From Candidatus Nanohalobium sp. (GTDB lineage Archaea; Nanohalarchaeota; Nanosalinia; Nanosalinales; Nanosalinaceae): a DNA stretch of 11,365 bases. The stretch spans positions 1 to 11,365 of the forward strand of contig JBDGTY010000051.1 of NCBI GenBank assembly GCA_042216335.1. Direction: 5' to 3'. The notes beneath the pieces were generated by a model. That model was not told where the DNA came from and did not search any database. It saw nothing but the letters and a program-made list of their open reading frames with translations. This document shows, one piece after another, positions 1-11,365 of this stretch; position 1 is the stretch's first letter; each line of letters opens with the position of its first letter. The position numbers and the translations under genes are program-made.

Positions 1-4
1 AAAA

Positions 5-77
5 TGGCAGGGCCGGGATTTGAACCCGGGTCCGTACAGCCCCACTGTACGATTATAGTCCACTAAACCACCCCGCC
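5..77 (-). tRNA. tRNA-Pro(GGG), intron-less, CCA not encoded
   Basis: Reverse complement folds as a cloverleaf: acceptor GGCGGGG/CCCTGCC + discriminator A; D arm GTTTAGTGGACTATAAT; anticodon arm GTACA-GT GGG GC-TGTAC (anticodon at 43..41); 4-nt variable loop; T arm CCGGG-TTCAAAT-CCCGG; followed by TTTT. Confidence 0.93.
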
Positions 78-98
78 GTTCTAAGAAAATAAAGAAAA

Positions 99-104
99 GT
101 TAAA
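99..104 (-). promoter_or_regulatory. TATA-like box (TTTAAC) for tRNA-Pro
   Basis: Lies 22-27 nt upstream of the mature tRNA 5' end, typical archaeal spacing. Confidence 0.45.
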
Positions 105-106
105 CT

Positions 107-352
107 TTAGTTAACCACCTCCTCAACCAGTTCGGTCTTACCACTCCTGTCCTCTACTTCGATCTCTCCATCTTCCAGGAATGTGTTGCCGACAATAACT
201 TTTCTCTGGACGCCGATAAGGTCGGCTTCGGCGAACTTCTCACCAACTGACATCTCGCCGTCGTAGAAGAGGACCTCCTCATCTTGGCTGAGTTCATGGT
301 AGACTTCTTCGGCTTTCTCCCGGGCCTTGTCTTCATCGCTTGCCAGGATCAC
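107..352 (-). CDS. Stand-alone class IIa (ProRS-like, HGTP) anticodon-binding domain, 81 aa; split gene or proS remnant
   Basis: KAEEVYHEL..VLFYD..SVGEKFAEADLIG..KVIVG..LEDGEIEVEDR matches the pattern of the bacterial-type ProRS C-terminal domain. An in-frame TGA three codons upstream of the GTG start means no catalytic domain is attached. Confidence 0.8.
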   Translation of the reverse strand: MILASDEDKAREKAEEVYHELSQDEEVLFYDGEMSVGEKFAEADLIGVQRKVIVGNTFLEDGEIEVEDRSGKTELVEEVVN

Positions 353-749
353 TGCTGTTCACCTCCGAGATGCCTGTCCACTATCTCAGTTAACTCCTGA
401 AGATCATCGACGTGAACCGCTTCTCCGTTACTGTCTCTGACGAATCCCTTTTCTGATCTACTGGCGATCTTGTACAGGTTGACTACTTCCTCTACTGAGT
501 TAGCATCTAGTAAATCGTTGTACTCTTCGGACACTTCCTCCAGAAGTTGATCTTGATGAGAGTAGGAGAAGAGCCGGTTTACGGAAGTTTCTGAAAGGTT
601 TTGAGAGTTATAATCGTAGCCGTCCGAGTGGAACGCGTCCACCCGTAGTTGAATCTAGCTGCATTGAAATCACGTTGAATTGGATAATCCAGCGACTCAG
701 AAAACTCTCGGAACAAATTCTACTGCCGAGGAACATAGTCACCGGACAT
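349..749 (-). pseudogene. Probably degraded hypothetical gene; its intact 3' part is ORF 349..642
   Basis: ATG at 749 after AGGTAA reads MSGDYVPRQ*NLFREFSESLDYPIQRDFNAARFNYG (TAG at 722..720). One extra G in the GGG run at 644..642 would join it to VDAFHSDG...LGGEQQ*. Confidence 0.5.
359..366 (-). promoter_or_regulatory. Shine-Dalgarno GGAGGTGA for ORF 107..352
   Basis: Perfect archaeal SD 6 nt before the GTG at 352; GTGA start/stop overlap with the upstream ORF. Confidence 0.6.
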
Positions 750-832
750 TGTATTTACCTGTAAGAAGTGAAGTTCTTAAGTAAGTTTCGGAGTCGACGG
801 AGGACTAAAAATATGGAAGAAGATGAATCACC

Positions 833-1459
833 ATGGAAGACTCAAAATTCCATTTCACTGCCCTCAAGCTCTGCTCGGTTTTCGTCGCAGTTTTCGCGTT
901 GCAGAGCTTCACAGGTTTTAACCTGGGGTTCCGGCCTGACCAGCCTTTCTGGAAGTTCTTTACCTCGATTTTCGGGCATTCCGGCATCGAACACCTGTCG
1001 AACAACCTGTTCTTCATCGCTTTGTTCGGTTCAGTCTACGAGAAGTGGACTTCAAGCACTACTTTCCTCTACACCTTCTTCGCCGCAGCCCTATTCGGAA
1101 ACCTGGCGGCGTTCATCTTCTACCCGAATTCTTTCATCATCGGTGCTTCTGCCGGAGGGATGGGGGTCATGGCGGCGCTGGCTGTCTACCGGCCTAACCA
1201 GATCGGGCTTGGGCTCGGTGTTCCTCTGCCGATGTGGGCAGTTCTGTTATCTTACATCTTCATCGACCTTTCCGGTTTGACCACCAGTAATGCGGTTGCG
1301 AACGAAGCACACCTGATGGGAGTCGTGGCCGGCGCATTAATCGGTTACCGGTTGAGGGGGAAAAGTTATGGCAAAGGTGTCGACGATGACGTTGATCTGG
1401 AGGAGGATTCGTGGAAGAAGAGAGTGAGAGAATGGGAGGAGAAATGGATGATGGATTAA
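833..1459 (+). CDS. Rhomboid-family intramembrane serine protease
   Basis: Hydrophobic multi-TM protein with H-xxxx-H-xxx-N (HSGIEHLSNN), catalytic GAS (IIGASAG) and AHxxG (NEAHLMG). Confidence 0.95.
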   Translation: MEDSKFHFTALKLCSVFVAVFALQSFTGFNLGFRPDQPFWKFFTSIFGHSGIEHLSNNLFFIALFGSVYEKWTSSTTFLYTFFAAALFGNLAAFIFYPNSFIIGASAGGMGVMAALAVYRPNQIGLGLGVPLPMWAVLLSYIFIDLSGLTTSNAVANEAHLMGVVAGALIGYRLRGKSYGKGVDDDVDLEEDSWKKRVREWEEKWMMD

Positions 1460-1495
1460 GGAAGGTTTTTTGGTAGGCTGCTGTGTTTTTCCTGT

Positions 1496-1930
1496 TTAGA
1501 TCTTTACGTATTTTTCGGGGTTGAAGTCGTCGAGCTCTATCTCAGTGTTTCTGTTGAGTTCGGAGTATTCCTCTGTTTTCTGGTCCAGGTATCCTATGAT
1601 GGCAGTGTATCTGCTTTCGGTGTATGGCCCGAGCTCGAACCGGTTTGTCTGGGATGATGAGTAAGTGTTTATCGTACTGTCGCCTGCCTCGAGGACGTCA
1701 TTGTAGGCAAGGAATCCCAGCGCTGCGTTAATTTTGTCTGTCGTGGGATGGGTTTTTCCCTGAGCAGAAAGTATCTGCCTTATCTCACCGGAGTGGAACT
1801 CTGGAGGGTTCTCAAGCCACCTGTCGGGATCCTGGTTAGCTGAGGAAAGCCCAGGTCTTATAGATTCCAGGTCATCTCTCAGACCTTCTACGGACTTCCT
1901 ACGCATACTCCCAAAATCGTTCGTGATCAT
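1496..1930 (-). CDS. Hypothetical protein, possibly winged-helix-like
   Basis: 144-aa acidic ORF filling the gap; FHSGEIRQIL..TTDKINAALGFLAYNDVLEA resembles a wHTH pattern (weak). Confidence 0.7.
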   Translation of the reverse strand: MITNDFGSMRRKSVEGLRDDLESIRPGLSSANQDPDRWLENPPEFHSGEIRQILSAQGKTHPTTDKINAALGFLAYNDVLEAGDSTINTYSSSQTNRFELGPYTESRYTAIIGYLDQKTEEYSELNRNTEIELDDFNPEKYVKI

Positions 1931-1968
1931 AGACAGAAAAAGAAATGTGAAAATTTATTACCCTGGAG

Positions 1969-2403
1969 TCAAAGAGGGCTGAAGTCCCTGTCACTTGAGG
2001 AATCCTCTTCTTCGCCCTCGGAATCATTTCTCCGTCTTGAGCGACCATCACCTGACCTCTGCTGATTTGAGGAACTCCTCCTCTGCTTTCTAGAACCGGT
2101 ACCTTGGTTTCCAGAACTTCTTTCCCGTGAGTTCTGTTTCTGACTGCTCTGCTGTGGCTGGTTTCCTCCTCTCTGATTCTGCCGGTCCTTTTGCTGTCGC
2201 TGCTTCTGTGCCTGTTCCTGGCCCTTTTGCTGGACCTCCTGGATGAACTGGTCCGTATCCACGCCTGCTTCTTCCAGTGCTCCGAGATGTCTTTCAAGCT
2301 GTGAGTTGACTATCTGGAGTAGTCTGGATAGTTCTTTTTTCTCGTGTAGAAGTGTTTCGACCGCGCCCTTGTGCCTGCCTACTTTCTCTTTCATAGACCC
2401 CAT
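1969..2403 (-). CDS. Hypothetical protein: N-terminal coiled coil and long Q/N/S/R-rich disordered tail
   Basis: Starts 16 nt after the TraB-like stop. Amphipathic helical N-half (HKGAVETLLHEKKELSRLLQIV), low-complexity C-half. Confidence 0.85.
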   Translation of the reverse strand: MGSMKEKVGRHKGAVETLLHEKKELSRLLQIVNSQLERHLGALEEAGVDTDQFIQEVQQKGQEQAQKQRQQKDRQNQRGGNQPQQSSQKQNSRERSSGNQGTGSRKQRRSSSNQQRSGDGRSRRRNDSEGEEEDSSSDRDFSPL

Positions 2404-2419
2404 TTGTTTTCTCAGCGAT

Positions 2420-3550
2420 TTAAAGGCCGATCAGCGAGGCGATGAAGCCTGCCGAGATGAAAGTGGCGGCTGCACTGCCCAACGTCACGAAGAAGAACGT
2501 CAGCAGCACTCTTCCGGCCTGGTTGCTCCATAGATCACGGTACTTCTCGACTTTGGTCACGTCTTCAAGCTCCTCGACTGTCGGGGGATGTAGCTTGGCC
2601 TCTGCATACGATGCGACCATCCCTGCTCCGAGCGCTGGGTCCAGGGAGGTCAGCGGAGCAGCAAGGAAAGAGGTTATCCATGTGGAAACATGTGAACGTG
2701 CTATTACTGCTCCAAGCATCGCCAGTAGTCCGTTGGAAAGTATCCAGAACTTCACTCCTTTGATACCTGTCGCGAAGCCTATCTGGTAGAAGCTGTAGCC
2801 CAGTCCAAGTATTATGAAAGCCGGTACGCCGTAGCTGATGATCTTCATCCACGGGATGCCCGAATCTTCCTGTATCGAGTATTCTTTCCGTGTGTTGAGG
2901 TCTTCGACCATGCCCTTTACGTGTGCCGCACCGACGACTACGACAGCGTGTTCAAAGTCTTCTTCCAGAAGTTTCTCCGCCATATATGTGTTCCTCTCCT
3001 CCAGGATGACTCTGTTCAAGGTAGGGAACTCCTCCTTCAATTCCTCGACGAGCGCTCCGAGAACGTTCCCTTCCTTGATGTCCTCTATCTCTACCTTTTC
3101 GGACTCGGCCGGCATGAAGACGGAGCCAAGCAGCTTGACCTTCTCCAGGATACCGAGTTCGGAGAAGGCACGGCTCAGCGTCTCGTTGATATCCCTGTCC
3201 AGCAGCGAGTACTCTATTTCCTGCTCCTCTGCCGCGTCAACGGCCTCCAGCATCTCCTCACCAGACTTGACTCCTTCCTTTATGCCAAGGCTTCTCTGGT
3301 AGATCGAGAGAACAAGATTCATGAAGAGCAGCGGTGCCTGACCGTCTCTGATCGCTTCTGACAGGTCCAGATCCCTCCAGCCCGAGTCCTCCTTCAGCGA
3401 CTTCAAACGGTTATCGTCAAGTTCCACTCCGACGAGATCCGGCTGAACTTCTTCTATAGTTTCGCGTACCTCTCTCCGGCTTTCCTCCGATACGTGGGCG
3501 GTGCCGATGAGTGTTACCTGTCGGTCGCCCAGGTCTACTTCCTTTTTCAC
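2420..3550 (-). CDS. TraB/GumN (pheromone-shutdown TraB-like) family membrane protein
   Basis: Motifs LIGTAHVS, PDLVGVELD, GEEM, LLDRDI, ERN, VVVVGAAH plus C-terminal TM helices. Confidence 0.95.
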   Translation of the reverse strand: MKKEVDLGDRQVTLIGTAHVSEESRREVRETIEEVQPDLVGVELDDNRLKSLKEDSGWRDLDLSEAIRDGQAPLLFMNLVLSIYQRSLGIKEGVKSGEEMLEAVDAAEEQEIEYSLLDRDINETLSRAFSELGILEKVKLLGSVFMPAESEKVEIEDIKEGNVLGALVEELKEEFPTLNRVILEERNTYMAEKLLEEDFEHAVVVVGAAHVKGMVEDLNTRKEYSIQEDSGIPWMKIISYGVPAFIILGLGYSFYQIGFATGIKGVKFWILSNGLLAMLGAVIARSHVSTWITSFLAAPLTSLDPALGAGMVASYAEAKLHPPTVEELEDVTKVEKYRDLWSNQAGRVLLTFFFVTLGSAAATFISAGFIASLIGL

Positions 3551-3630
3551 GGATTATTCTCGGTAGGCCAGAATATTAAATCATTGTCAGAGGGAAAGAA
3601 TTCAATAACCGGCTTTCACAAATAACATGT

Positions 3631-4308
3631 ATGACAGTTATCAAAGCGGATAAGGTTTCCAAAAGTTTCGGGGAACTCGACGCGCTCAGGAACATATCTT
3701 TCGAGGTCGAGGAAGGTGAGATAGTCGGGATTCTGGGGCCTAACGGCGCCGGAAAATCCACCTTGATGAATATCCTTACAGGGCAGATGGAGCGCGATTC
3801 CGGGGAGGTAGAGGTTCTAGGACAGGATCCAGAGGATGATCCGGCAGGACTTAGGGAGAAACTGGGTATCCTTCCGGAGCGTGAGGATCCGCCAAGCTTC
3901 CTGACGGGACGTGAATATCTTGATTTCGTGGCTGATATACGCGGCGAGCATCCGAACCGGGGAAAGTGGATAGCCAAATTGAACATGGAGAAGGATATGG
4001 AGAAGCTGACGCAGGATCTGTCAAAGGGTGAGCGCCAGAAGCTGATGATTGCGCAGGCTTTTTTCCATGAGCCGGAGCTGGTTTTCATCGACGAGCCGTT
4101 GATCAACCTTGATCCGTTCATCCAGGAGGAGGCGAAGGATGTATTCAGAGAGCATGTCGAGGACGGCGGGACGCTTGTGATGTCGACCCATGTGGTGTCT
4201 CTCGCGGAGGAGCTGTGTGACAGGGTTCTTTTCATCGAAGACGACATTGTCGTGGAGGAAGTTGAGGATGTCGAAAACCTCAGAGAGAAGTTCCTTGATG
4301 AAGGATGA
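3631..4308 (+). CDS. ABC transporter ATP-binding protein (exporter type)
   Basis: Walker A GPNGAGKST, signature LSKGE, Walker B VFIDEP, H-loop STH. Confidence 0.96.
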   Translation: MTVIKADKVSKSFGELDALRNISFEVEEGEIVGILGPNGAGKSTLMNILTGQMERDSGEVEVLGQDPEDDPAGLREKLGILPEREDPPSFLTGREYLDFVADIRGEHPNRGKWIAKLNMEKDMEKLTQDLSKGERQKLMIAQAFFHEPELVFIDEPLINLDPFIQEEAKDVFREHVEDGGTLVMSTHVVSLAEELCDRVLFIEDDIVVEEVEDVENLREKFLDEG

Positions 4309-5435
4309 AGCAGTTCCTGAAGATCGTCCGGATGATGATGCTGGAGGAGTGGCGCGCCCACAGCCGGATATACCACGGTAGAAGCTTCGCCCTCTTCCCG
4401 GTAATGGTGTTCATACTCTCTGCGGGATTCTCCTACATAACCCTGAACTATTCCACACTGACGGCTTCCGCTCTTCAGACAGGCCTTGCCGTACTAGGAG
4501 GTTTCTTCGGCCTGGCTGCCGGTGCCGTCGGCTTCTACGGCAAGGATGCGTTCAGGAACATCCTCGGGCGGACGAACTACATAATCTATTCTTCCCGGAC
4601 TCTTCCGCTGACGAAGGCGAAGCTTGGACTGGCATTCCTCGTCAAGGACACAGTCTACTACAGCCTGATCATGGTCCTGCCGGTGGTACTCGGCTTTGCT
4701 CTGTTTGCTCCGTCGATACTCTCGGGGATCCCTCTGATGCTGGCTGCGTTCCTGGTATCAGCTGTTCTCAGCCTCGGTTTCACTCACGTTATCAGGACCC
4801 GGCTTTTCTCGCCCGGCATGAAGCTGCCGACAGACCCTTTGACAAGCAAGGCCGTTCTTGATATCTCCCGGTCCTCCGGCGGGTTCCTGAAGGTCATCTT
4901 CTCCCTGGGGGTCCTGACTTTCTTCTACTGGTACTTCGTCCTGTTTTTCCCAACGGCCAACGCATTCCTCAAGAATCCTCTACTCTCATTCGCCGTCATC
5001 ACGGGACTGGCGAACCTGAGCACGTACAACTGGATCAACCGCTTCGACTCCTACGAGGACTACGAGTATCTCCCGGTCTCGTTCCAGCAGCTGGTCGATT
5101 CGAAGAAGAAGGCGTACGTCTTCCTGACACTGCCGCTCTCCGCTGCCCTGATACTGATAGCCTATCTTTTCTACCCCGGAAACCTTCTCCTGGCATTGCT
5201 GATGGGTTTCGCATCGACCATGTACAGTCTGGTGGTTGCTGAAAAATTGACGAAGTTGAAGCCGAACCTGCGTTTCTATCAGGCCGGTGTCTTCGCCAAA
5301 CTACTGGTTGTGGAGGGCTTTGTCGTCGTTCCTCTGCTTGTGGCGTCCGTGCTGTACGATGGTGTGTGGATCGAGGTCGCGGCCTTCTCTTTCCTGGTTC
5401 TGGCGGCTTCGGCATTGATAGAGGAGCACTGGTAG
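4305..5435 (+). CDS. Putative ABC exporter permease
   Basis: 376-aa polytopic membrane protein with ATGA overlap with the ATPase gene. Confidence 0.85.
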   Translation: MKQFLKIVRMMMLEEWRAHSRIYHGRSFALFPVMVFILSAGFSYITLNYSTLTASALQTGLAVLGGFFGLAAGAVGFYGKDAFRNILGRTNYIIYSSRTLPLTKAKLGLAFLVKDTVYYSLIMVLPVVLGFALFAPSILSGIPLMLAAFLVSAVLSLGFTHVIRTRLFSPGMKLPTDPLTSKAVLDISRSSGGFLKVIFSLGVLTFFYWYFVLFFPTANAFLKNPLLSFAVITGLANLSTYNWINRFDSYEDYEYLPVSFQQLVDSKKKAYVFLTLPLSAALILIAYLFYPGNLLLALLMGFASTMYSLVVAEKLTKLKPNLRFYQAGVFAKLLVVEGFVVVPLLVASVLYDGVWIEVAAFSFLVLAASALIEEHW

Positions 5436-5448
5436 GCCGAGTAAGTCA

Positions 5449-5454
5449 TTTAAG
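5449..5454 (+). promoter_or_regulatory. TATA box TTTAAG upstream of the PEBP gene
   Basis: About 25 nt before ATG 5477; GGTGAT SD-like site at 5469-5474. Confidence 0.5.
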
Positions 5455-5476
5455 TGAGGCATTTAAACGGTGATGT

Positions 5477-5926
5477 ATGCAACTGAAAAGTCCTGTGTTC
5501 GACGAAAGCGATCAGATACCGGGAAGATGCGGTAAGGCCCGGGAAAACGTTTCTCCGCCCCTTATATTCGAGAATGTGCCTCAAAACGCTGAATCTCTCG
5601 TCCTTGTGATGGATGACCCCGACTCAAAGAAAGTTTCCGGGAAAGTCTGGGATCACTGGCTGGTCTGGAACATCGACCCGACGACTGTGGAGTTTCCTGA
5701 AGGCCAGGTTCCAAGCGGCATAGAGGGATTAAACGACTTTGACGAGGTTGGCTGGGGAGGCCCCAACCCACCCGATGACACGCACGAGTACAGGTTCATC
5801 CTCTACGCCGTCGACACAGTACTAGACCTTCCCCGGGAGTCCAAAAAGAAGGATGTATACGACGCGATCAAAGGCCATGTCATCGAAAAGGACGAACTCC
5901 ACGGAGTCTATTCACCGGTAGGATAA
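5477..5926 (+). CDS. YbhB/YbcL family (PEBP / Raf kinase inhibitor-like) protein
   Basis: Motifs NVSPPL, VMDDPD, WDHWLVWNI, GLNDF, WGGPNPP, HEYRFILYA. Confidence 0.96.
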   Translation: MQLKSPVFDESDQIPGRCGKARENVSPPLIFENVPQNAESLVLVMDDPDSKKVSGKVWDHWLVWNIDPTTVEFPEGQVPSGIEGLNDFDEVGWGGPNPPDDTHEYRFILYAVDTVLDLPRESKKKDVYDAIKGHVIEKDELHGVYSPVG

Positions 5927-5933
5927 GCAAAGA

Positions 5934-5939
5934 TTTAAG
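5934..5939 (+). promoter_or_regulatory. TATA box TTTAAG, probably for a leaderless transcript
   Basis: Purine-rich BRE-like AAAGA upstream; 24-29 nt before ATG 5963; no SD. Confidence 0.5.
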
Positions 5940-5962
5940 CAGCAGAGAAGTCAACCTTAACC

Positions 5963-6457
5963 ATGAATATCCCGAGATCGGCACTCGCCTACAGCGTATT
6001 CAGGAACATCCACCAGGACAGACAAAGCTACAGCGTCCAGCTGGAACTGAGACACGGCATGGACGACGAGAGGGCCGAACAGGTCATATTGGAAGCAGCC
6101 GAGGAACACTTCCTCGACGAGGTCAAAGAATCCGACCCGATCCAGTACACAGTAGACATCGACAAACTCACAGACCTGTGGTACGAACTCTGGGAAGAAG
6201 AGGTCGGTGAAGCACCCATCACACCGGAGAAATTCGAGAGCTTTCTCAAAAGCTACATCAAGTCCTACTTCGAACACGAGAAACACTCCACACTAAAGGA
6301 GATGCTGGTCGACGAATTCCAGCTCGGATTAAGCAGGCAGAAAAGCCTCGGGAGACTATCCAACGACCTGCGGGAACTATCCGAACACCTCAACGAACAG
6401 TACGACGGCAAGAGGTCGCCTGGAGAACACGTCAAGTACGGCCTCGACCACAGATAA
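5963..6457 (+). CDS. Hypothetical acidic protein
   Basis: 164-aa ORF with C/G-ending codons like its neighbours and its own TATA box; no family recognised. Confidence 0.8.
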   Translation: MNIPRSALAYSVFRNIHQDRQSYSVQLELRHGMDDERAEQVILEAAEEHFLDEVKESDPIQYTVDIDKLTDLWYELWEEEVGEAPITPEKFESFLKSYIKSYFEHEKHSTLKEMLVDEFQLGLSRQKSLGRLSNDLRELSEHLNEQYDGKRSPGEHVKYGLDHR

Positions 6458-6479
6458 CTGCTGTTTTTCCTTCCTCAAC

Positions 6480-8681
6480 TTAGTCCCACTGAGAGCCATC
6501 GAACCTCTTGACCTTGAAAGGCCTTACCCAGTTGCTTCCGTCATAAACTTTGACAGTTCCAGGTGTGAAACTGGAATTGTAGTACTGTAGTCCGTAACCT
6601 GTCTTCAAACTCACAGTATTTGAATCAGAACTTGTGTGTTCCGTGAAGGCTCTCACCTTTGCCTGATAATCCTGATTGAACAGAAGTTCTGAAGTCGTGA
6701 ATGAGGTACTATTCGCCGATATGTCGCTTCCCTGCTGAGAGAAAGTTGAGCCTCCGTCCGTGGAAAGCATCAGTCTGAATCCGTCCTCGTTGTTTGAGTT
6801 ATCAGTCCAGGAAGCAGTTATTTTGTTGTTGTTGTCGATGACGGATGCGGTGTCTATTCCCGGCGATGGCAGGATCGTCGTTCCTGAAACAGTCGAAGAG
6901 TCAGTGTAGTAGTATGACTGCACTGTGCCGTGGCGTGCCTGCTCGGAGGTAGCTCTGACAAACGTCTCGTACTTCTCCCCGTCAAGAAGCCCTGTGAAAG
7001 TGTAAGAATTCAGATTTGCTGAAAGATTATCAATGTGGTTCCACGTACTTGTCCCCTTCGGCCGTATCTTGGTCTCGTACTTGGTGTTAACGGATGCATT
7101 ATCGGTCCATGAAGCAGTGATTTCACGTTCCGTGGAAGTATCCAGAGACAGTCCAGAAGGTGCTGCAGGCTTCGTAAACTCATGAAGTACATCACTGACG
7201 ACCACCCGGTCTACAGCGAACTGGTCGCCACCTCCGGTAGATCCCGTAAACCGCAGCCTGTTATCTGTAGAGAGTTTACTGGCTGGAACATGCTCCACTA
7301 TCTCGACCCATCCCTGCCGGTTGTATTCGTTGTGGATTTCTCTAAGATTACTCCAGGAACTACCGTCGTACCACTGGATCTTCCCATACTCACTGGACCC
7401 ATCCGCCGACTCGATAGCCACCGCACACTTCACGATGACATCAGACTCACTGCTCAGATCACCGAGATTCTTGGTGACACTATTTGTAGAGTCAAGCCGG
7501 AGATAGTAAGTACCTTCATCCGCACCACCGACACTCCCAGCCGGCAACCCACCGCTGACAATACCGGACTGGGAATCACTAAGACTCGTAGAACTCCACT
7601 CAGCTAAGTCCTGATCCTCAAAGTCATCACTGAAAAAGAGGTTGCCCTTGTTGCCGTAGTCGGCGTAGACCCAATCAGACGTACCCCCATCGGGTGCTAT
7701 CGTCCGAAGGCGGTACTGGAATCGAGCATCAGACGGTGGAGAATCGCTGTATGAAGTCGCGCCAGCACTGGTCGTTGTAACGGTACTCCACGCTGAGTAG
7801 CCACTACCTGTGTCGTCACGGCGCTGGACTTCGACACCGCTCTCTATACTACTCTTATTACTCCACGAGAGCGAAACTGTCGAAGCGTCAGGCCGCGACA
7901 CACTCGGGTTGTGCGACGGGATTGGCTCGGTGTAGACCGTTCCCGAGTACGTCCATGACGAGTTACCCACCGAATTTTCGGCTCTTACACGGAAACGGAA
8001 CGACGAGTCGATGCCAACCTGTGAATTGTATGAATTATCGCTGTTCGGGTTATAAGTAGCAGATGTAGTGCCTGAATTTGGAGTAGCATTACCTCCAGAG
8101 GGGGTTGTGTAGCTTGCTCCGTCGCGGCTTAGTTGAACCCGATAATTGCCTTGGTCGCCATTCCAGTTCACCGACGACCATGAAACATCAATCTTATCAT
8201 TTCCTTGGACAGATGTAGAGACTGAGGTCGGAGCAGAGGGTGCTGTTACTGGAGTGTATGCTGTTATTGCGGCGAAATTATACATAGTGGCATAACTACC
8301 ACTATCAGTGTTTCCATCGTAGTAACTGGCCGTAACATCGAAGTCACTCGATGACTTTGGTCCTCCATATTGATCATAACCATAGATGTATGATGAATCG
8401 CTCCCCCCATCAACCCAAATCTTTTTACTAAATGAAGCAGAAACCGAAACATCGAAGTGAATTGTCTCTCCACCGCTGAAATTTCCTGTTCGTACTGCAT
8501 CTGGATTTGATGGATCTCCTATAGCCACACGGCTACATGAAACGTTGGACATTAGAGTTACTTCTACAGAAGATAAATCGGTATTTGCTTCTATAACAAC
8601 CCCTCTTTCTGTATTAGGATAATCTTCAGTAGTCCAACCATCTGTGCTGTATGTGATAGTACTTCCTTTTTGTTCAGCCAT
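6480..8681 (-). CDS. Fibronectin type III repeat protein with jelly-roll/lectin-like insert; putative adhesin or tail-fibre-like protein; no signal peptide
   Basis: S/T/G/D-rich. Four FN3-like units (aa ~146-251, 253-342, 504-602, 604-695; W..Y/F-R-V-R-A pattern), FFSDDFE...FAVDRVVV beta-sandwich (aa ~349-497), C-terminal VKVYDGSNW..VKRFDGSQWD. Confidence 0.9.
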   Translation of the reverse strand: MAEQKGSTITYSTDGWTTEDYPNTERGVVIEANTDLSSVEVTLMSNVSCSRVAIGDPSNPDAVRTGNFSGGETIHFDVSVSASFSKKIWVDGGSDSSYIYGYDQYGGPKSSSDFDVTASYYDGNTDSGSYATMYNFAAITAYTPVTAPSAPTSVSTSVQGNDKIDVSWSSVNWNGDQGNYRVQLSRDGASYTTPSGGNATPNSGTTSATYNPNSDNSYNSQVGIDSSFRFRVRAENSVGNSSWTYSGTVYTEPIPSHNPSVSRPDASTVSLSWSNKSSIESGVEVQRRDDTGSGYSAWSTVTTTSAGATSYSDSPPSDARFQYRLRTIAPDGGTSDWVYADYGNKGNLFFSDDFEDQDLAEWSSTSLSDSQSGIVSGGLPAGSVGGADEGTYYLRLDSTNSVTKNLGDLSSESDVIVKCAVAIESADGSSEYGKIQWYDGSSWSNLREIHNEYNRQGWVEIVEHVPASKLSTDNRLRFTGSTGGGDQFAVDRVVVSDVLHEFTKPAAPSGLSLDTSTEREITASWTDNASVNTKYETKIRPKGTSTWNHIDNLSANLNSYTFTGLLDGEKYETFVRATSEQARHGTVQSYYYTDSSTVSGTTILPSPGIDTASVIDNNNKITASWTDNSNNEDGFRLMLSTDGGSTFSQQGSDISANSTSFTTSELLFNQDYQAKVRAFTEHTSSDSNTVSLKTGYGLQYYNSSFTPGTVKVYDGSNWVRPFKVKRFDGSQWD

Positions 8682-8754
8682 AAAATATCACTTGTTATAT
8701 ATCACGTGTAGGTTTACACCATTTCATCCCCATTCATTAAAATCTCAGATTACG

Positions 8755-9168
8755 TCACTGGTTCGGCACCTCGACAGTATGGGTAACAGTGGCTTTGTCG
8801 CCGTCCTGGCTCAGAGGAATGTTAGCGAACTTCTCTTGTTTTGTCACCTGAGTGGCACCCGTTCCCGAGCCGCCGTTGAAGATGGCAGAATACTGGAGTG
8901 TCGTGGGAAGTGGGATGTCGCTATCCGAACCACTTACATCGAACTTGACTTTCAGAACGTTGTCGGCATCGGTATCGGTCCACTGACATCGAGAGTCGCC
9001 AGTAATCGAGACGCGCGTTACAGCTGTACCGCTGTCTTCGTACAGTTCGATATAGTCCCATTATGGGGGCGTTGCGGCACTGCTGTTACTAGTTCTGTGA
9101 AGATTCTGAACTACCATATTCGCATTTTTGGGTGTTGTATCCGTTGATTTTGAGGATTTTGTGTCCAT
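8755..9168 (-). pseudogene. Stop-interrupted gene resembling a small viral tail-module protein (absent from the ORF track)
   Basis: One frame from ATG 9168: MDTK...NSSAATPP*WDYIELYEDSGTAVTRVSITGDSRCQW...GSDSDIPLPTTLQYSAIF...DKATVTHTVEVPNQ*, with internal TAA at 9063..9061 and 101 protein-like codons after it. Viral resemblance is from recall, not a search. Confidence 0.75.
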
Positions 9169-9208
9169 GATGCTTCATCCTGTGTGTACTCTTATTAAAA
9201 GCTTCCAG

Positions 9209-9583
9209 CTAGGACGTATCAATCCAGATGTCGTTGGTGTCGGGATTTGAGGGTGCTGAACTGCCTACGTGGATACTGTGGCCGTCGACGGTTTCTGCGT
9301 TTACTCCGGAGCTCCCTTGGTTGGCGGGCTGTATCAGGCTCCAGGCCCCGGTTACGGAGGAGGATAGAGCCAGTGTGCCGGCGCCTACGCCGAGCATCTT
9401 AATGAAGCTGCGCCTGGAGACTTTCTCGTTCTCTACATCTTTTTCTGCTTCTTTTGTTTCTCCGCTGGTTTTTCTTTTCTCCAGTTTTTCTTCCAGTCTT
9501 TTCTCTACTTTCTGCTCGACTAATTCCTCGAGCCTTTCTGGCATATCAATGTCTTCAAAGTTTTCACCATCTTCTTCCGGCAT
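9209..9583 (-). CDS. Small twin-arginine (Tat) signal protein with tail-fibre-like C-terminus
   Basis: SRRSFIK at aa 56-62 followed by hydrophobic MLGVGAGTLALSSSVTGA; 55-aa charged helical N-region; C-terminus NAETVDG..VGSSAPSNPDTNDIWIDTS. Confidence 0.88.
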   Translation of the reverse strand: MPEEDGENFEDIDMPERLEELVEQKVEKRLEEKLEKRKTSGETKEAEKDVENEKVSRRSFIKMLGVGAGTLALSSSVTGAWSLIQPANQGSSGVNAETVDGHSIHVGSSAPSNPDTNDIWIDTS

Positions 9584-9830
9584 AAATCCTATTTTTGAGT
9601 CCTTTTTGAAATAAGTTGTCTTCCGGGAGTGGATGCCGGTTCGCGGTCGATGAAGGAGGAATAATTTTATTTCGCCTCGACAGGGAAATCTAAGGAGTGA
9701 TCGGTGTCGAGACCCATTTGCCTTTGCTCAGCGAGGGTTCAGTGATTTATTGAAGGAGGAAGGGGTTTCAGCCTGAATCTTACATTTTCCTTACATGCTC
9801 GTTTTTCTCGGCAAAAACCTGGCTCCTCCC

Positions 9831-9877
9831 TTATAAAGATGGCTGGTCAATTCATAATTACAACTTACAAGGAGGTG
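9831..9877 (+). promoter_or_regulatory. TATA box (TTATAAA, 9831-9837) and SD (GGAGGTG, 9871-9877) of the cold-shock gene
   Basis: Consensus archaeal TATA and strong SD 11 nt before ATG 9889. Confidence 0.6.
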
Positions 9878-9888
9878 TTATTTGGTTT

Positions 9889-10089
9889 ATGCAAGGTACA
9901 GTTAAGTTCTTCCACGATGGAGACGGTTACGGATTCATCGAGACGGAAGAGATGGACGAAGACGTTTTCTTCCACATGAGTGAACTGCCTGAAGGAACAG
10001 AGGATCCTGAAGAAGGAGACGCTGTTGAATTCGAGCAGGAAGAAGGCGACAGAGGTCCAAAGGCAACAAACGTAGAGTTTGTTGAATAA
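9889..10089 (+). CDS. csp: Cold-shock protein (CspA family)
   Basis: GTVKFF, RNP1 GYGFI, RNP2 VFFH, C-terminal GPKATNV; 66 aa. Confidence 0.97.
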   Translation: MQGTVKFFHDGDGYGFIETEEMDEDVFFHMSELPEGTEDPEEGDAVEFEQEEGDRGPKATNVEFVE

Positions 10090-10116
10090 GTCCTTCAGTT
10101 TTTAGCTGAAAGACTT
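10088..10116 (+). terminator. Stem-loop followed by pyrimidine tract between convergent csp and DsrE-like genes
   Basis: AAGTC-C-TTCAGTT / TTT / AGCTGAA-A-GACTT: 12 pairs (one G-U) with one mismatch, then T/C-rich sequence. Confidence 0.65.
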
Positions 10117-10173
10117 CCTTTGAACTCTTCACAACTTTTCTCTTTCCTATACTTTTCACACAGAACGATTCTC

Positions 10174-10512
10174 TCAGTTGACTTTGATGTAGTTGAAGTC
10201 ATTTTCCTGCAGTCTGTTCAGTTCCGCGACGCCGGAGGAAACGAGTTCGGCATCTTCGATAATTTTGTCTTCATCTACTTCTCTGTTTTCCACGGAGTTG
10301 CTGCAGGCTTTAAACGAGACTTTTTCCGGATATTCTCTGATGAATTCTGCTGCTTCGGAACCTTTTTCCAGCATCTTGACTGCGTCGCCGTTCAGGACTA
10401 CGGCTATCTCCTCTACTTCAGTTGTTTTATCGCTAATCAAATTCTGGATGTTTCCGAGTAGTTCGCTTTGCCGTGTTTTGTCGTTGGTGTTGAGGTGGAA
10501 GACAGTCTTCAT
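10174..10512 (-). CDS. DsrE/DsrF-like family protein
   Basis: KTVFHL, NIQNL, VVLNGDAV, conserved Cys in FKACSNS, VSSGVAEL..LQ..YIK. Confidence 0.92.
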   Translation of the reverse strand: MKTVFHLNTNDKTRQSELLGNIQNLISDKTTEVEEIAVVLNGDAVKMLEKGSEAAEFIREYPEKVSFKACSNSVENREVDEDKIIEDAELVSSGVAELNRLQENDFNYIKVN

Positions 10513-10548
10513 GTGGAAGTCTGGGAACTTCCGGGATTTAACGGTTCT

Positions 10549-10896
10549 TCAACTGTTTCGTGTTAAAATGACGAGTGCTGTGGCTGGTACTGCCAGCAGG
10601 AATGTGAGGCCTATGGTGAGCCAGTGCCATGCGTTGACGCCCAGTGGATAGCTGAGAGGCGATCCGATAAGCACGAGTATGAGGCCGGTTGCTCCGGCCA
10701 TGTCGACGAAGTAGTTCATCTGTCCGGATCCGCGGTAGGCTCCTCCGATGAGGACGGTGAGGCCGTAGATCCCTAGGAATACCTGTGAGAGAAATGTGTA
10801 GCTGAACCCTGTCTTCTGGAGGACCTGCGGAAGGGCTGCTACTGCTAGGCCTGTCAGCATCATCGTGAAGCTTATCCCGCTCTGATCTTCTGCCAT
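10549..10896 (-). CDS. Hypothetical membrane protein (about 4 TM)
   Basis: 115 aa with four hydrophobic segments. Confidence 0.8.
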   Translation of the reverse strand: MAEDQSGISFTMMLTGLAVAALPQVLQKTGFSYTFLSQVFLGIYGLTVLIGGAYRGSGQMNYFVDMAGATGLILVLIGSPLSYPLGVNAWHWLTIGLTFLLAVPATALVILTRNS

Positions 10897-10955
10897 ACTA
10901 TTTGCTTCCGCAGGGAGAAATAAAGAGGTAAGGGGGAAAAGAGAAGAGGAACGAG

Positions 10956-11363
10956 TTAGAAGATGGAAGTGATCCCTTTCCAGAGACCTGTCAGGAAGTC
11001 CATCAGGAAGTTGCCCTGGGTGAAGTCTCCGGTGATGGATTCGTCTTCCTCGACAATTTCGACTGTCTTGACTCCTGTGAACTTCTTGCCGTCTATCCTG
11101 ACTTCGGCCTTTATTGTGTAGGTTCCGGGCTGGAGGTCGCCGGGCCTGAAATCTCGGATGATGACGTCGCCCACGCTGACGTTCTGGACGTTTTCGTATA
11201 CTATTGTTCCTTCGCTGTTGGTTATCGAGGTGGTGATCTCGACTGTTTCGAAAGTCTCCGGCCTTGCGTTGTCCCAGATCTTGACGGCGTAGCTCGGGTC
11301 GGTGGACGATAGCCGTGCCGTATTACCCAGGATAGCCACATCCATCTCACCTTCAAACTCGTC
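10956..11363 (-). CDS. 3' end of a probable surface protein with an Ig-like domain (5'-partial)
   Basis: Frame is open to the window edge (DEFEGE precedes the listed Met). Beta-rich with LQPGTYTIKAEV; ends ITGDF + amphipathic FLMDFLTGLWKGITSIF. Confidence 0.8.
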   Translation of the reverse strand, partial: DEFEGEMDVAILGNTARLSSTDPSYAVKIWDNARPETFETVEITTSITNSEGTIVYENVQNVSVGDVIIRDFRPGDLQPGTYTIKAEVRIDGKKFTGVKTVEIVEEDESITGDFTQGNFLMDFLTGLWKGITSIF

Positions 11364-11365
11364 GA

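Follow-up and report, generated by a model that had tools for sequence, protein, structure and literature searches.

A candidate two-gene surface-display cassette with a split virus tail-fibre joint in a nanohaloarchaeon

Introduction

A protein that lacks an export signal can leave the cell together with a partner that has one. The small and large subunits of hydrogenases are such a 'hitchhiker' pair of Tat, the pathway of twin-arginine translocation. Others are the flavin adenine dinucleotide glucose dehydrogenase, where a small gamma subunit bears the signal (in the relevant passage of PMC6719666), and PaoABC (likewise in part of PMC4273604). In a rather different setting, the phages T2 and S16 encode a glycine-rich adhesin monomer, gp38, separately from the fibre protein gp37, and gp38 docks on the end of the gp37 trimer (in the part of PMC12892980 that cites Dunne et al. 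2018). Here we describe a locus that can be set beside both kinds of system. It lies in an 11,365-nucleotide stretch of DNA from Candidatus Nanohalobium sp. (assembly GCA_042216335.1, contig JBDGTY010000051.1, positions 1 to 11,365), which we call the window. Three elements follow each other on the reverse strand: an open reading frame (ORF) for a small protein with a Tat signal, the 'carrier' (9209-9583), a 527-nt spacer, and an ORF for a large protein with no leader, the 'cargo' (6480-8681). The two proteins end in complementary parts of a motif otherwise known from the tail fibres of viruses.

To the open question of how symbionts of the DPANN group recognise their hosts and stay attached to them, this locus contributes a concrete and testable protein pair. 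For nanohaloarchaea, surface proteins with LamG and PKD domains have been put forward as likely host-recognition factors, and the distribution of Tat in these organisms is patchy (PMC10266531 and PMC9765267); an arrangement such as the present one is not mentioned in these papers. We propose that two genes of the window make up a cassette for surface display with a viral tail-fibre joint at its core, in which the carrier is a Tat-exported stub and the cargo is a leaderless protein of viral type. We give this proposal somewhat better than even chances.

Results

The carrier ends in SAPSNPDTNDIWIDTS (9209-9259, stop codon included) and the cargo in VKVYDGSNWVRPFKVKRFDGSQWD (6480-6554, again with the stop codon), or in extended form ...GLQYYNSSFTPGTVKVYDGSNWVRPFKVKRFDGSQWD. 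The original prediction, which was made from the letters of the window alone, named a contiguous element of phage tail-fibre proteins that would here be divided between two proteins. Both parts of this idea hold up. The first part of the element, which we call half1 (xVxVG ... P-S-N-P-x-x-N-D-I-W-I-D-T), ends one window protein and the second part, half2 (V-K-x-Y/W-D-G-S-x-W-V), ends the other. The contiguous element is also real: it is found in tandem in the proteins P0125 (five copies) and P0152, and it also occurs in ten Tat proteins of related genomes (G, C, L and P numbers are our labels for genomes, contigs, loci and proteins). The DGxxW-type end of the cargo was correctly placed, although its extent was underestimated: by eye the cargo tail (residues 697-733, 6483-6593) is made of three tandem half2 units, GLQYYNSSFTPGT, VKVYDGSNWVRPF and KVKRFDGSQWD, not of one or two. 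The whole of the genome to which the window belongs has just two frames that terminate in half1 and just two that terminate in tandem half2 motifs, and these four make up two adjacent pairs, one in the window (contig C47) and one on contig C34. The split-motif pairing is thus found at exactly these coordinates; it is conserved and is not due to chance.

The carrier gene (9209-9583, reverse strand) encodes 124 amino acids (aa): a charged N-terminal segment, a twin-arginine (RR) signal and a short mature part that ends in half1. The first of these (residues 1-54, 9422-9583) is acidic or charged, probably helical and kept across the carrier family, whose alignments match the query from about residues 5-30 onward; homologous segments are modelled by AlphaFold2 (AF2) as helices, with low confidence. 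The signal (residues 55-80, 9344-9421) consists of SRRSFIK at residues 56-62, in agreement with the S/T-R-R-x-F-L-K consensus, and a moderately hydrophobic h-region (Kyte-Doolittle over 15 residues, 1.45) within the 34 uncharged residues that follow. It scores 25.5 bits against NCBIfam TIGR01409 (cut-off 16.7), which covers residues 55-80, while Pfam TAT_signal, below its cut-off, covers residues 54-73. This agrees with the Tat motif originally described, as does the mature part of about 44 residues (81-124). Half1 itself, ETVDGHSIHVGSSAPSNPDTNDIWIDTS (residues 97-124, 9212-9295), has two predicted strands, as are seen for the homologous stretch in an AF2 model of the contiguous form, and runs up to the stop codon. 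Its residues 101-123 are matched by phrog_22680 (E 4e-4). Among 7 carriers from 6 genomes the alignment columns V31, S34, P36, S37, P39, D43, I44 and W45 are invariant and the stop codon falls at the same spot, 2-3 residues past the W, at an identity of otherwise 40-73%.

The N-terminal part of the carrier has seven paralogues in its own genome. When the 124-aa carrier was compared by word index with proteins of similar length, only the carrier itself and its paralogue came up. A charged segment of some 40-60 residues stands ahead of the RR throughout the family (including members on C3, C10, C16, C29, C34 and C38 of the same genome); this is unusual for Tat signals, and the segment could serve in cytoplasmic oligomerisation or retention.

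The cargo gene (6480-8681, reverse strand) encodes a leaderless, FN3-rich protein of 733 aa. Pfam fn3 matches it in two stretches with 63 bits against a gathering score of 25 (E 3.2e-17), best at residues 507-581. No hydrophobic or transmembrane segment was detected in it (Kyte-Doolittle over 19 residues at most 0.99; over 15 residues within the first 40 aa, 0.10), nor any match to TIGR01409, and the stop-to-stop frame reaches just 2 codons upstream of the ATG, so that a hidden leader is impossible. The cargo had been described from the outset as an anchor-free FN3 protein with no signal peptide, and so it is. A jelly-roll that was also suggested has no Pfam call on the cargo itself; Laminin_G_3 is found only in homologues.

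Three parts can be told apart in the cargo. Residues 1-142 (8256-8681) form an N-terminal domain that is variable and probably the distal end that binds the ligand; it cannot be aligned to the paralogue on C34; an Atlas model of these residues leads to clusters of beta-sandwich folds similar to carbohydrate-binding modules and discoidin (TM scores 0.5-0.64, a lead only). Residues 143-696 (6594-8255) are a conserved FN3/beta-sandwich body that is common to tail proteins of haloarchaeal viruses, and residues 697-733 are the tail of half2 units. Each unit is of about 13 aa, and in the tail alignment, A2, the columns K23, G27, W30, K37, G41, S42 and W44 are invariant. Logan contigs of one DNA sequencing run break at 6484-6530, where a 38-mer stands at double depth, because the tail sequence is common to the C34 paralogue and the assembly graph branches there.

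For the comparison across the order we used 70 genomes, of which G000 is the one that carries the window. The N-terminal module of the carrier is present in 22 of the 70. The profile of the cargo tail, A2, finds five strong places (E <= 3.8e-15, the next best match being at 7.1e-4), namely the two of G000 and one each in G050, G047 and G063, i.e. four genomes of three genera. Each of the five has immediately upstream a Tat gene whose stop falls 2-3 residues beyond D-I-W-x-D/N. This is the adjacency that the original prediction had anticipated and whose absence would have refuted it. The spacers measure 527 nt in the window, 30 nt on C34, and 11, -1 and 11 nt at the remaining loci. The junctions have their own stops and starts, with a TAATG overlap or AGGAG-like sites, and the two genes stand in differing relative frames, which speaks for two coupled polypeptides and against recoding. 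In all five cargos the open frame is merely 0-6 codons longer than the ORF, so there is no hidden leader in any of them.

A single type of joint serves different cargos. On C34 a 126-aa carrier paralogue, which likewise ends in SAPSNPETNDIWIDTS, is followed by a leaderless 788-aa protein with the same tail. The two cargos of G000 are 64% identical over residues 143-733 of the window protein, while their N-terminal 142 and 191 residues cannot be aligned. Their tails are 91% identical, although the DNA is about 75% identical, which suggests that selection acts on the tail. The cargos of G050, G047 and G063 are glycine-rich proteins of 260-320 aa and are unrelated to the FN3 cargos of 733 and 788 aa. 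PF12810 matches that of G063 above the cut-off (E 6.8e-7) and that of G047 below it (E 7.3e-5), and the cargo of G050 has only a weak match to PF21722 (E 0.047). Two unrelated bodies on one joint fit the idea of an exchangeable adhesin, and so do paralogous cargos whose differences are confined to the N-terminal 142-191 aa. Three half2 units can be counted by eye in each cargo tail against one half1 in each carrier, and this ratio suggests that three carriers may serve each cargo.

Relatives in which the two halves lie on one chain tell us more about the module. The contiguous form, ...GTLFYDTDGEGVHYYNGSSWV... (also read as ...VDGHHLSVGSSKPGSPATGTLFYDTDGEGVHYYNGSSWV...), is found in ten Tat proteins, which belong to G035, G067 and G068, and is mostly followed by a body that is lectin-like in a low-confidence model. 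Two of the ten are short, with 104 aa (L039 2249-2563) and 149 aa (L038 3958-4407), and have little beyond the signal and one complete hairpin module of half1 and half2. Three tandem paralogues of G065 place half1 right after the signal and half2 at the extreme C-terminus, with WD40 repeats of about 300 aa (E 3.2e-28) in between. AF2 models a contiguous form poorly as a whole (mean pLDDT 49); its residues 81-120 reach a pLDDT of 83-88 and show four strands, two in the half1 part (80-85 and 97-100) and two in the half2 part (105-109 and 114-118). A VIA search with this low-confidence model found 5zbt_A for the lectin-like body only (Z 10.2, root-mean-square deviation 3.2, 150 residues aligned). 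Sequence searches of the PDB gave no solved chain at E < 0.2 with the profiles A1 and A2, and nothing at E < 0.3 with the full contiguous protein, and an Atlas feature search of the joint gave scores of 0.81-0.89 to viral clusters, PTL_trimer and Mtd_N, which are leads only. That the carrier end and the cargo tail would be the two sides of a split docking joint is well supported by these comparative data.

A second, sequence-distinct type of pair exists. Here Tat mini-proteins of 70-178 aa that end in DPSNPxxGxxW(Y/F)RxDLx lie directly upstream of leaderless partners with a module VPVF(D/E)...LRVQT...ALNLVDP... at the N- or C-terminus. This type-B pair is seen, for example, at L040 (4051-4278 with 1769-4036), L074 (843-1055 with 1076-3322), L071, L072, L073 and L041 (4019-9181). 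The pairing holds in 6 of the 8 loci examined, with 3 further matches outside the count, and the partners include FN3 homologues of the window cargo of 748-1402 aa. On contig C29 of G000 a Tat-family protein of 126 aa (5423-5803) with a different end is followed, 158 nt on, by a leaderless 194-aa protein (5962-6546), which may be a third type of carrier and partner. Leaderless or Sec-type proteins of 800-1160 aa also adjoin Tat-family genes (L027 11701-14877; L028 2768-5851; L029 196-3675; G000 C56 12072-14480). Judging by eye, we take their C-terminus (...DLAE.Y...GVVS..P...ALEGKVPVKV...) to resemble the intramolecular chaperone end of phage tail spikes.

The carrier family goes together with the Tat machinery. 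The window's own genome has tatC (C56:11185-11802, 184 bits) and tatA (C56:11890-12027, 43.9 bits) next to each other, both above cut-off. TatC was found in 16 and not found in 6 of the genomes that have the family, and was found in 4 and not found in 44 of those that do not; all 8 genomes with a split carrier have TatC. Kin among the genomes are not independent, and these counts are no statistic. Of the 16 genomes that have both, 12 have a family gene no farther than about 6 kb from tatC, which often stands with tatA. Examples of tatC close to a family gene are L027 7848-8887, L031 2563-3252, L036 5144-5836 and L043 4547-5465. A loose pattern gives as credible RR-signal ORFs of the window's genome seven members of the carrier family and one other.

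Viral relatives and alternative explanations

The joint is at home in viruses. When the carrier-end profile was searched against 1.84 billion representative proteins, 1412 were found at E <= 1e-3, and we inspected the best 150 matches. Most are giant repeat proteins; 22 end exactly at half1, of which 8 have an RR signal, and the 14 that have none resemble the tail-fibre proteins that phages or haloviruses have. Eleven half1-terminated genes could be read with their surroundings in contigs from viruses, metagenomes and genomes (two more contigs end too early), and 7 of these 11 have a partner with three half2 units within three genes downstream: at its C-terminus in five (L054, L058, L061, L065, L079), and at its N-terminus, in the next gene, in two (L063, L066). 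One more partner has a single half2 unit (L067), and three cases have no such partner (L052/53, L064, L081). The carriers of L058 and L061 match Collagen (E 7e-36 and 8e-40) and a PHROG tail fibre (E 2e-56 and 7e-67), and that of L079 is collagen-like by eye. No curated family covers the joint: both Mtd_N (PF18454; 13.4 against a gathering cut-off of 26.3, E 0.076) and DUF2510 (PF10708; 13-16 against 24, E 0.012-0.08) stay below the cut-off.

In the IMG/VR contig L054 the half1-terminated protein (226 aa, 3419-4099) appears by eye to be related to a 231-aa protein of G047 (L031 670-1365). The latter looks cellular and has a different end, and the genes that come after it are small, leaderless and of beta-sandwich type. 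The L054 contig may therefore be a fragment of a nanohaloarchaeon or a virus of these archaea.

The cargo body has a similar pedigree. Its 87 homologues come chiefly from haloarchaea and hypersaline metagenomes (P0056 at E 1.1e-103), and by eye none of the proteins P0003-P0081 has a leader, with half2 ends found only in two proteins of the window's own genome. In tblastn searches the cargo matches HALG_00046 of Halorubrum virus CGphi46 (residues 161-688, 40.7% identity, E 4e-97) and HrrHm1_100 of Halorubrum virus Humcor1 (residues 161-636, 42.7%, E 2e-92), the gene of the latter sitting two genes past that for the tape measure; phrog_18315 (E 2.7e-19) and phrog_33719 (E 1.2e-12) also match. 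The joint is older than the archaeal system described here, and both joint and cargo body are of viral ancestry. Judging from its spread among phage tail fibres, the joint is not specific to the Tat system.

Could the locus then be a remnant of a virus or provirus, i.e. tail-fibre parts of a (nano)haloarchaeal virus that assemble in the cytoplasm as in phages, with an RR that is not used for export? The relationship to the tail-region proteins of CGphi46 and Humcor1 speaks for this, as do the frequent joints of one half1 and three half2 in phage contigs and the 14 half1-terminated proteins without an RR signal. A further point in its favour is that the cassette of cargo, spacer fragment and carrier (3.4 kb, 6458-9825) is an indel: two congeners, G049 and G048, have their homologues of window 5990-6457 and 9826-10089 separated by just 75 and 27 nt, and the same two flanking genes enclose the empty sites (G049:C15:7587-8391 and G048:C60:18081-18788). 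However, the indel is no longer than 3.4 kb, and no flanking repeats of at least 9 nt were found around it; on this ground site-specific integration was rejected. The cargo locus lies outside any tail gene module, between cellular genes, and a family search among the 17 window proteins gave no capsid, portal, terminase, tape-measure or integrase family. TIGR01409 is above its cut-off in 7 of 9 carriers, 12 of 16 genomes have family genes no farther than 6 kb from tatC, and fused relatives carry lectin and WD40 bodies behind the same signal. One relative (L030) stands, by eye, beside pilin-like genes and a gene similar to a pilus ATPase. We consider a provirus remnant unlikely.

The rest of the window is cellular in character. 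The window is contig C47 of an assembly of 1.02 Mb that is 96% complete. It begins with a tRNA-Pro (GGG) gene (5-77, reverse strand) that is 100% identical to a stretch of G047, and its other genes encode an anticodon-binding domain, a rhomboid protein, TraB, an ABC pair, PEBP, a cold-shock protein and a DsrE-like protein. The PEBP gene (5477-5926), like the cassette, has no match in G049.

Another possibility is that the two proteins take separate routes. The carrier would go through Tat alone and become a surface stub, and the cargo would leave by vesicles, lysis or an unknown system and dock outside, perhaps on the stub of a neighbouring cell. Strand complementation would work outside the cell just as well, carriers without an adjacent partner exist in G068 and G069, and the window cargo may be transcribed on its own: it begins 527 nt away from the carrier, and a ATATATAA stretch can be read by eye 17-24 nt ahead of its ATG. 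Against this, no alternative export signal was found on the five cargos or, by eye, on six type-B partners. The translational coupling at 3 of the 5 loci (the TAATG overlap and the two 11-nt spacers) argues for assembly at synthesis, and Tat is the only route known to take folded oligomers. Separate routes are, in our judgement, about as improbable as a remnant of a virus.

The spacer between the two window genes contains a broken reading frame (8755-9174, reverse strand), which the original prediction had missed: 37 codons led by an ATG, an in-frame TAA (9061-9063) and then 101 codons that have no start codon of their own. These 101 residues match P0073, a different FN3-family protein of 518 aa, with 54% identity (E 7e-38) to its C-terminal domain at residues 421-517. 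Logan contigs of one DNA run, probably from the source sample, give identical letters across the broken frame, and there is no further copy of the fragment in the window's genome or among the 70 genomes. The fragment is probably the scar of an earlier cargo gene, left from its C-terminal domain.

With such a fragment between the two ORFs, and with single-chain relatives in existence, one may ask whether a single gene of Tat signal, half1, body and half2, similar to those of G065, has simply broken and left non-functional debris in the window. This we hold to be very unlikely. The stop codon is at the same spot in 7 carriers of 6 genomes with an identity of otherwise 40-73%, both long ORFs are intact, as is the paralogous pair on C34 with its 30-nt spacer, and the 91% identity of the paralogous cargo tails, against about 75% for the DNA, suggests that they are under selection. 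A fusion of carrier and cargo by stop read-through or frameshifting, for which one could cite the viable single chain of G065, is hardly credible and was rejected on frames and stops: the five spacers put the genes into different relative frames, C34 has an extra in-frame stop 3 codons ahead of the cargo ATG, and the window spacer holds further stops.

Discussion

We return to the surface-display cassette and to how it might work. The exported part of the carrier, about 44 residues, would supply the first two strands of a four-stranded beta module, and the cargo tail would offer three copies of the complementary two-strand unit. In a first step, in the salt-rich cytoplasm, half1 segments of carriers would complete the tail of the folded cargo, most likely three carriers to one cargo, giving three four-stranded sheets. 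The complex would then pass through TatA/TatC on the signals of the carriers, i.e. by hitchhiking. Finally, the carriers would either release the cargo or, where the signal stays uncleaved, keep it attached to the membrane, the variable N-terminal domain of the cargo facing outward. In fused relatives the module stands behind the signal and would therefore be exported; a cargo that pairs with an exported half1 would then have to leave the cell although it has no signal itself, and hitchhiking on Tat is the known route for this. We infer the physical interface of carrier and cargo, its 3:1 stoichiometry, the co-export of the cargo by Tat and a role in attachment to host cells.

Several observations weigh against this proposal. 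The carrier scores 20.6 bits on Pfam TAT_signal, below the cut-off of 22.7, and 2 of the 9 carriers tested are below the cut-off of TIGR01409. Tat signals usually have their RR within about 35 residues of the N-terminus; in the carrier it is at residues 57-58, and it is similarly far in across the family. The genome G035 has 11 family genes, and TatC was not found in it, at 90% completeness in 100 contigs. A published genome analysis judged Tat 'likely inactive' in two nanohaloarchaea in culture, which are missing either TatA or all of Tat (PMC10266531). The pair in the window is split by 527 nt that contain a broken gene fragment; it has lost the tight coupling of the other four loci and could be a copy in decay. 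The carriers of G068 and G069 that end in DIWFDVS have no adjacent gene with a tail. An AF2 model of the WD40 form of G065, built from an alignment of 3 sequences, gives both halves a pLDDT of 22-38 and is uninformative on their pairing. Finally, the joint is common in phages, which need no export, and on its own says nothing about secretion, and the cargo body belongs to a family of virus proteins, which keeps alive the idea of a provirus remnant.

A bolder and more tentative reading, which we think may well be wrong, is that nanohaloarchaea have domesticated the receptor-binding tail proteins of the viruses of their own hosts. These would be displayed by a trimer of minimal Tat-exported stubs, whose three half1 segments would close with the three half2 units of the cargo into one joint similar to a beta-prism. 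Cassettes would be swapped in order to retarget the cell to other hosts, and the joint would be a general, hitherto undescribed adaptor from trimer to monomer in phage fibres. Since the joint is generic, cargo cassettes could be swapped by recombination. The reading fits the swapped N-terminal domains, the two classes of cargo, the spacer fragment and the indel status of the cassette.

If the cassette works as proposed, it would widen Tat hitchhiking beyond enzymes with cofactors, to surface adhesins of modular build. A cell could export a leaderless, pre-folded binding protein of viral type with no need to evolve a signal for it. The patchy Tat system of nanohaloarchaea might be kept mainly for the carrier family. 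Furthermore, a portable split docking module that is common to many phage tail fibres could be used to predict which shafts pair with which receptor-binding proteins. A literature search in full text, with subscription journals and supplements outside its scope, returned no description of the split joint or of Tat co-export of adhesins in these archaea.

Comparison with known systems

How does the locus compare with what has been described? In chaperone-usher pili strands of one protein fill in the beta structure that another leaves incomplete, and the principle of donor-strand complementation is similar to what we propose for half1 and half2. The fold is different, export there is by Sec and an usher and is known from Gram-negative bacteria only, and we claim no homology.

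The closest in sequence to the cargo body are the tail-region proteins of Graaviviridae, HALG_00046 of CGphi46 and HrrHm1_100 of Humcor1, with 41-43% identity over 65-72% of the cargo. They share with it the leaderless state and the FN3/beta-sandwich body. However, they end past the last FN3 (...TEHTQTEDN) without half2 and lie among tail genes, whereas the window has no other virus gene. The joint is most closely matched by the contiguous repeat of tail fibres, (A/S)P-x-x-P-x-x-(G/N)D-x-W-x-D-T ... L-K-x-Y-D-G-x-x-W, which is near Mtd_N and DUF2510 and has the same residues in the same order on one chain. The window divides this element over two proteins and triples its second part.

In architecture the closest system is the gp37-gp38 pair of T2 and S16. 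One half1 against three half2, together with the collagen-like fibres among the viral carriers (L058, L061), would suggest a similar arrangement of a trimeric fibre with one adhesin monomer. As with gp38, 3 of the 5 archaeal cargos are glycine-rich by sequence, and a glycine-rich family is above its curated cut-off only in G063. On the other hand, gp38 binds by its N-terminus, while the archaeal cargos of the present system have their docking units at the C-terminus; units at the N-terminus are found in 2 of the 7 phage partners. Neither half1 nor half2 has a sequence match to solved chains at E < 0.2, and the phages have no Tat signal.

In mechanism the Tat hitchhikers are closest. There too the RR is on one partner only, and the other is folded, leaderless and encoded beside it; here TatA and TatC are present in the same genome. 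The known hitchhikers are redox enzymes that contain cofactors and have interfaces specific to their subunits, whereas the present pair has no cofactor domain (fn3 being the only Pfam match). The carrier is little more than a signal and about 44 residues, and in place of a dedicated interface it would use a portable split beta module that unrelated cargos have reused.

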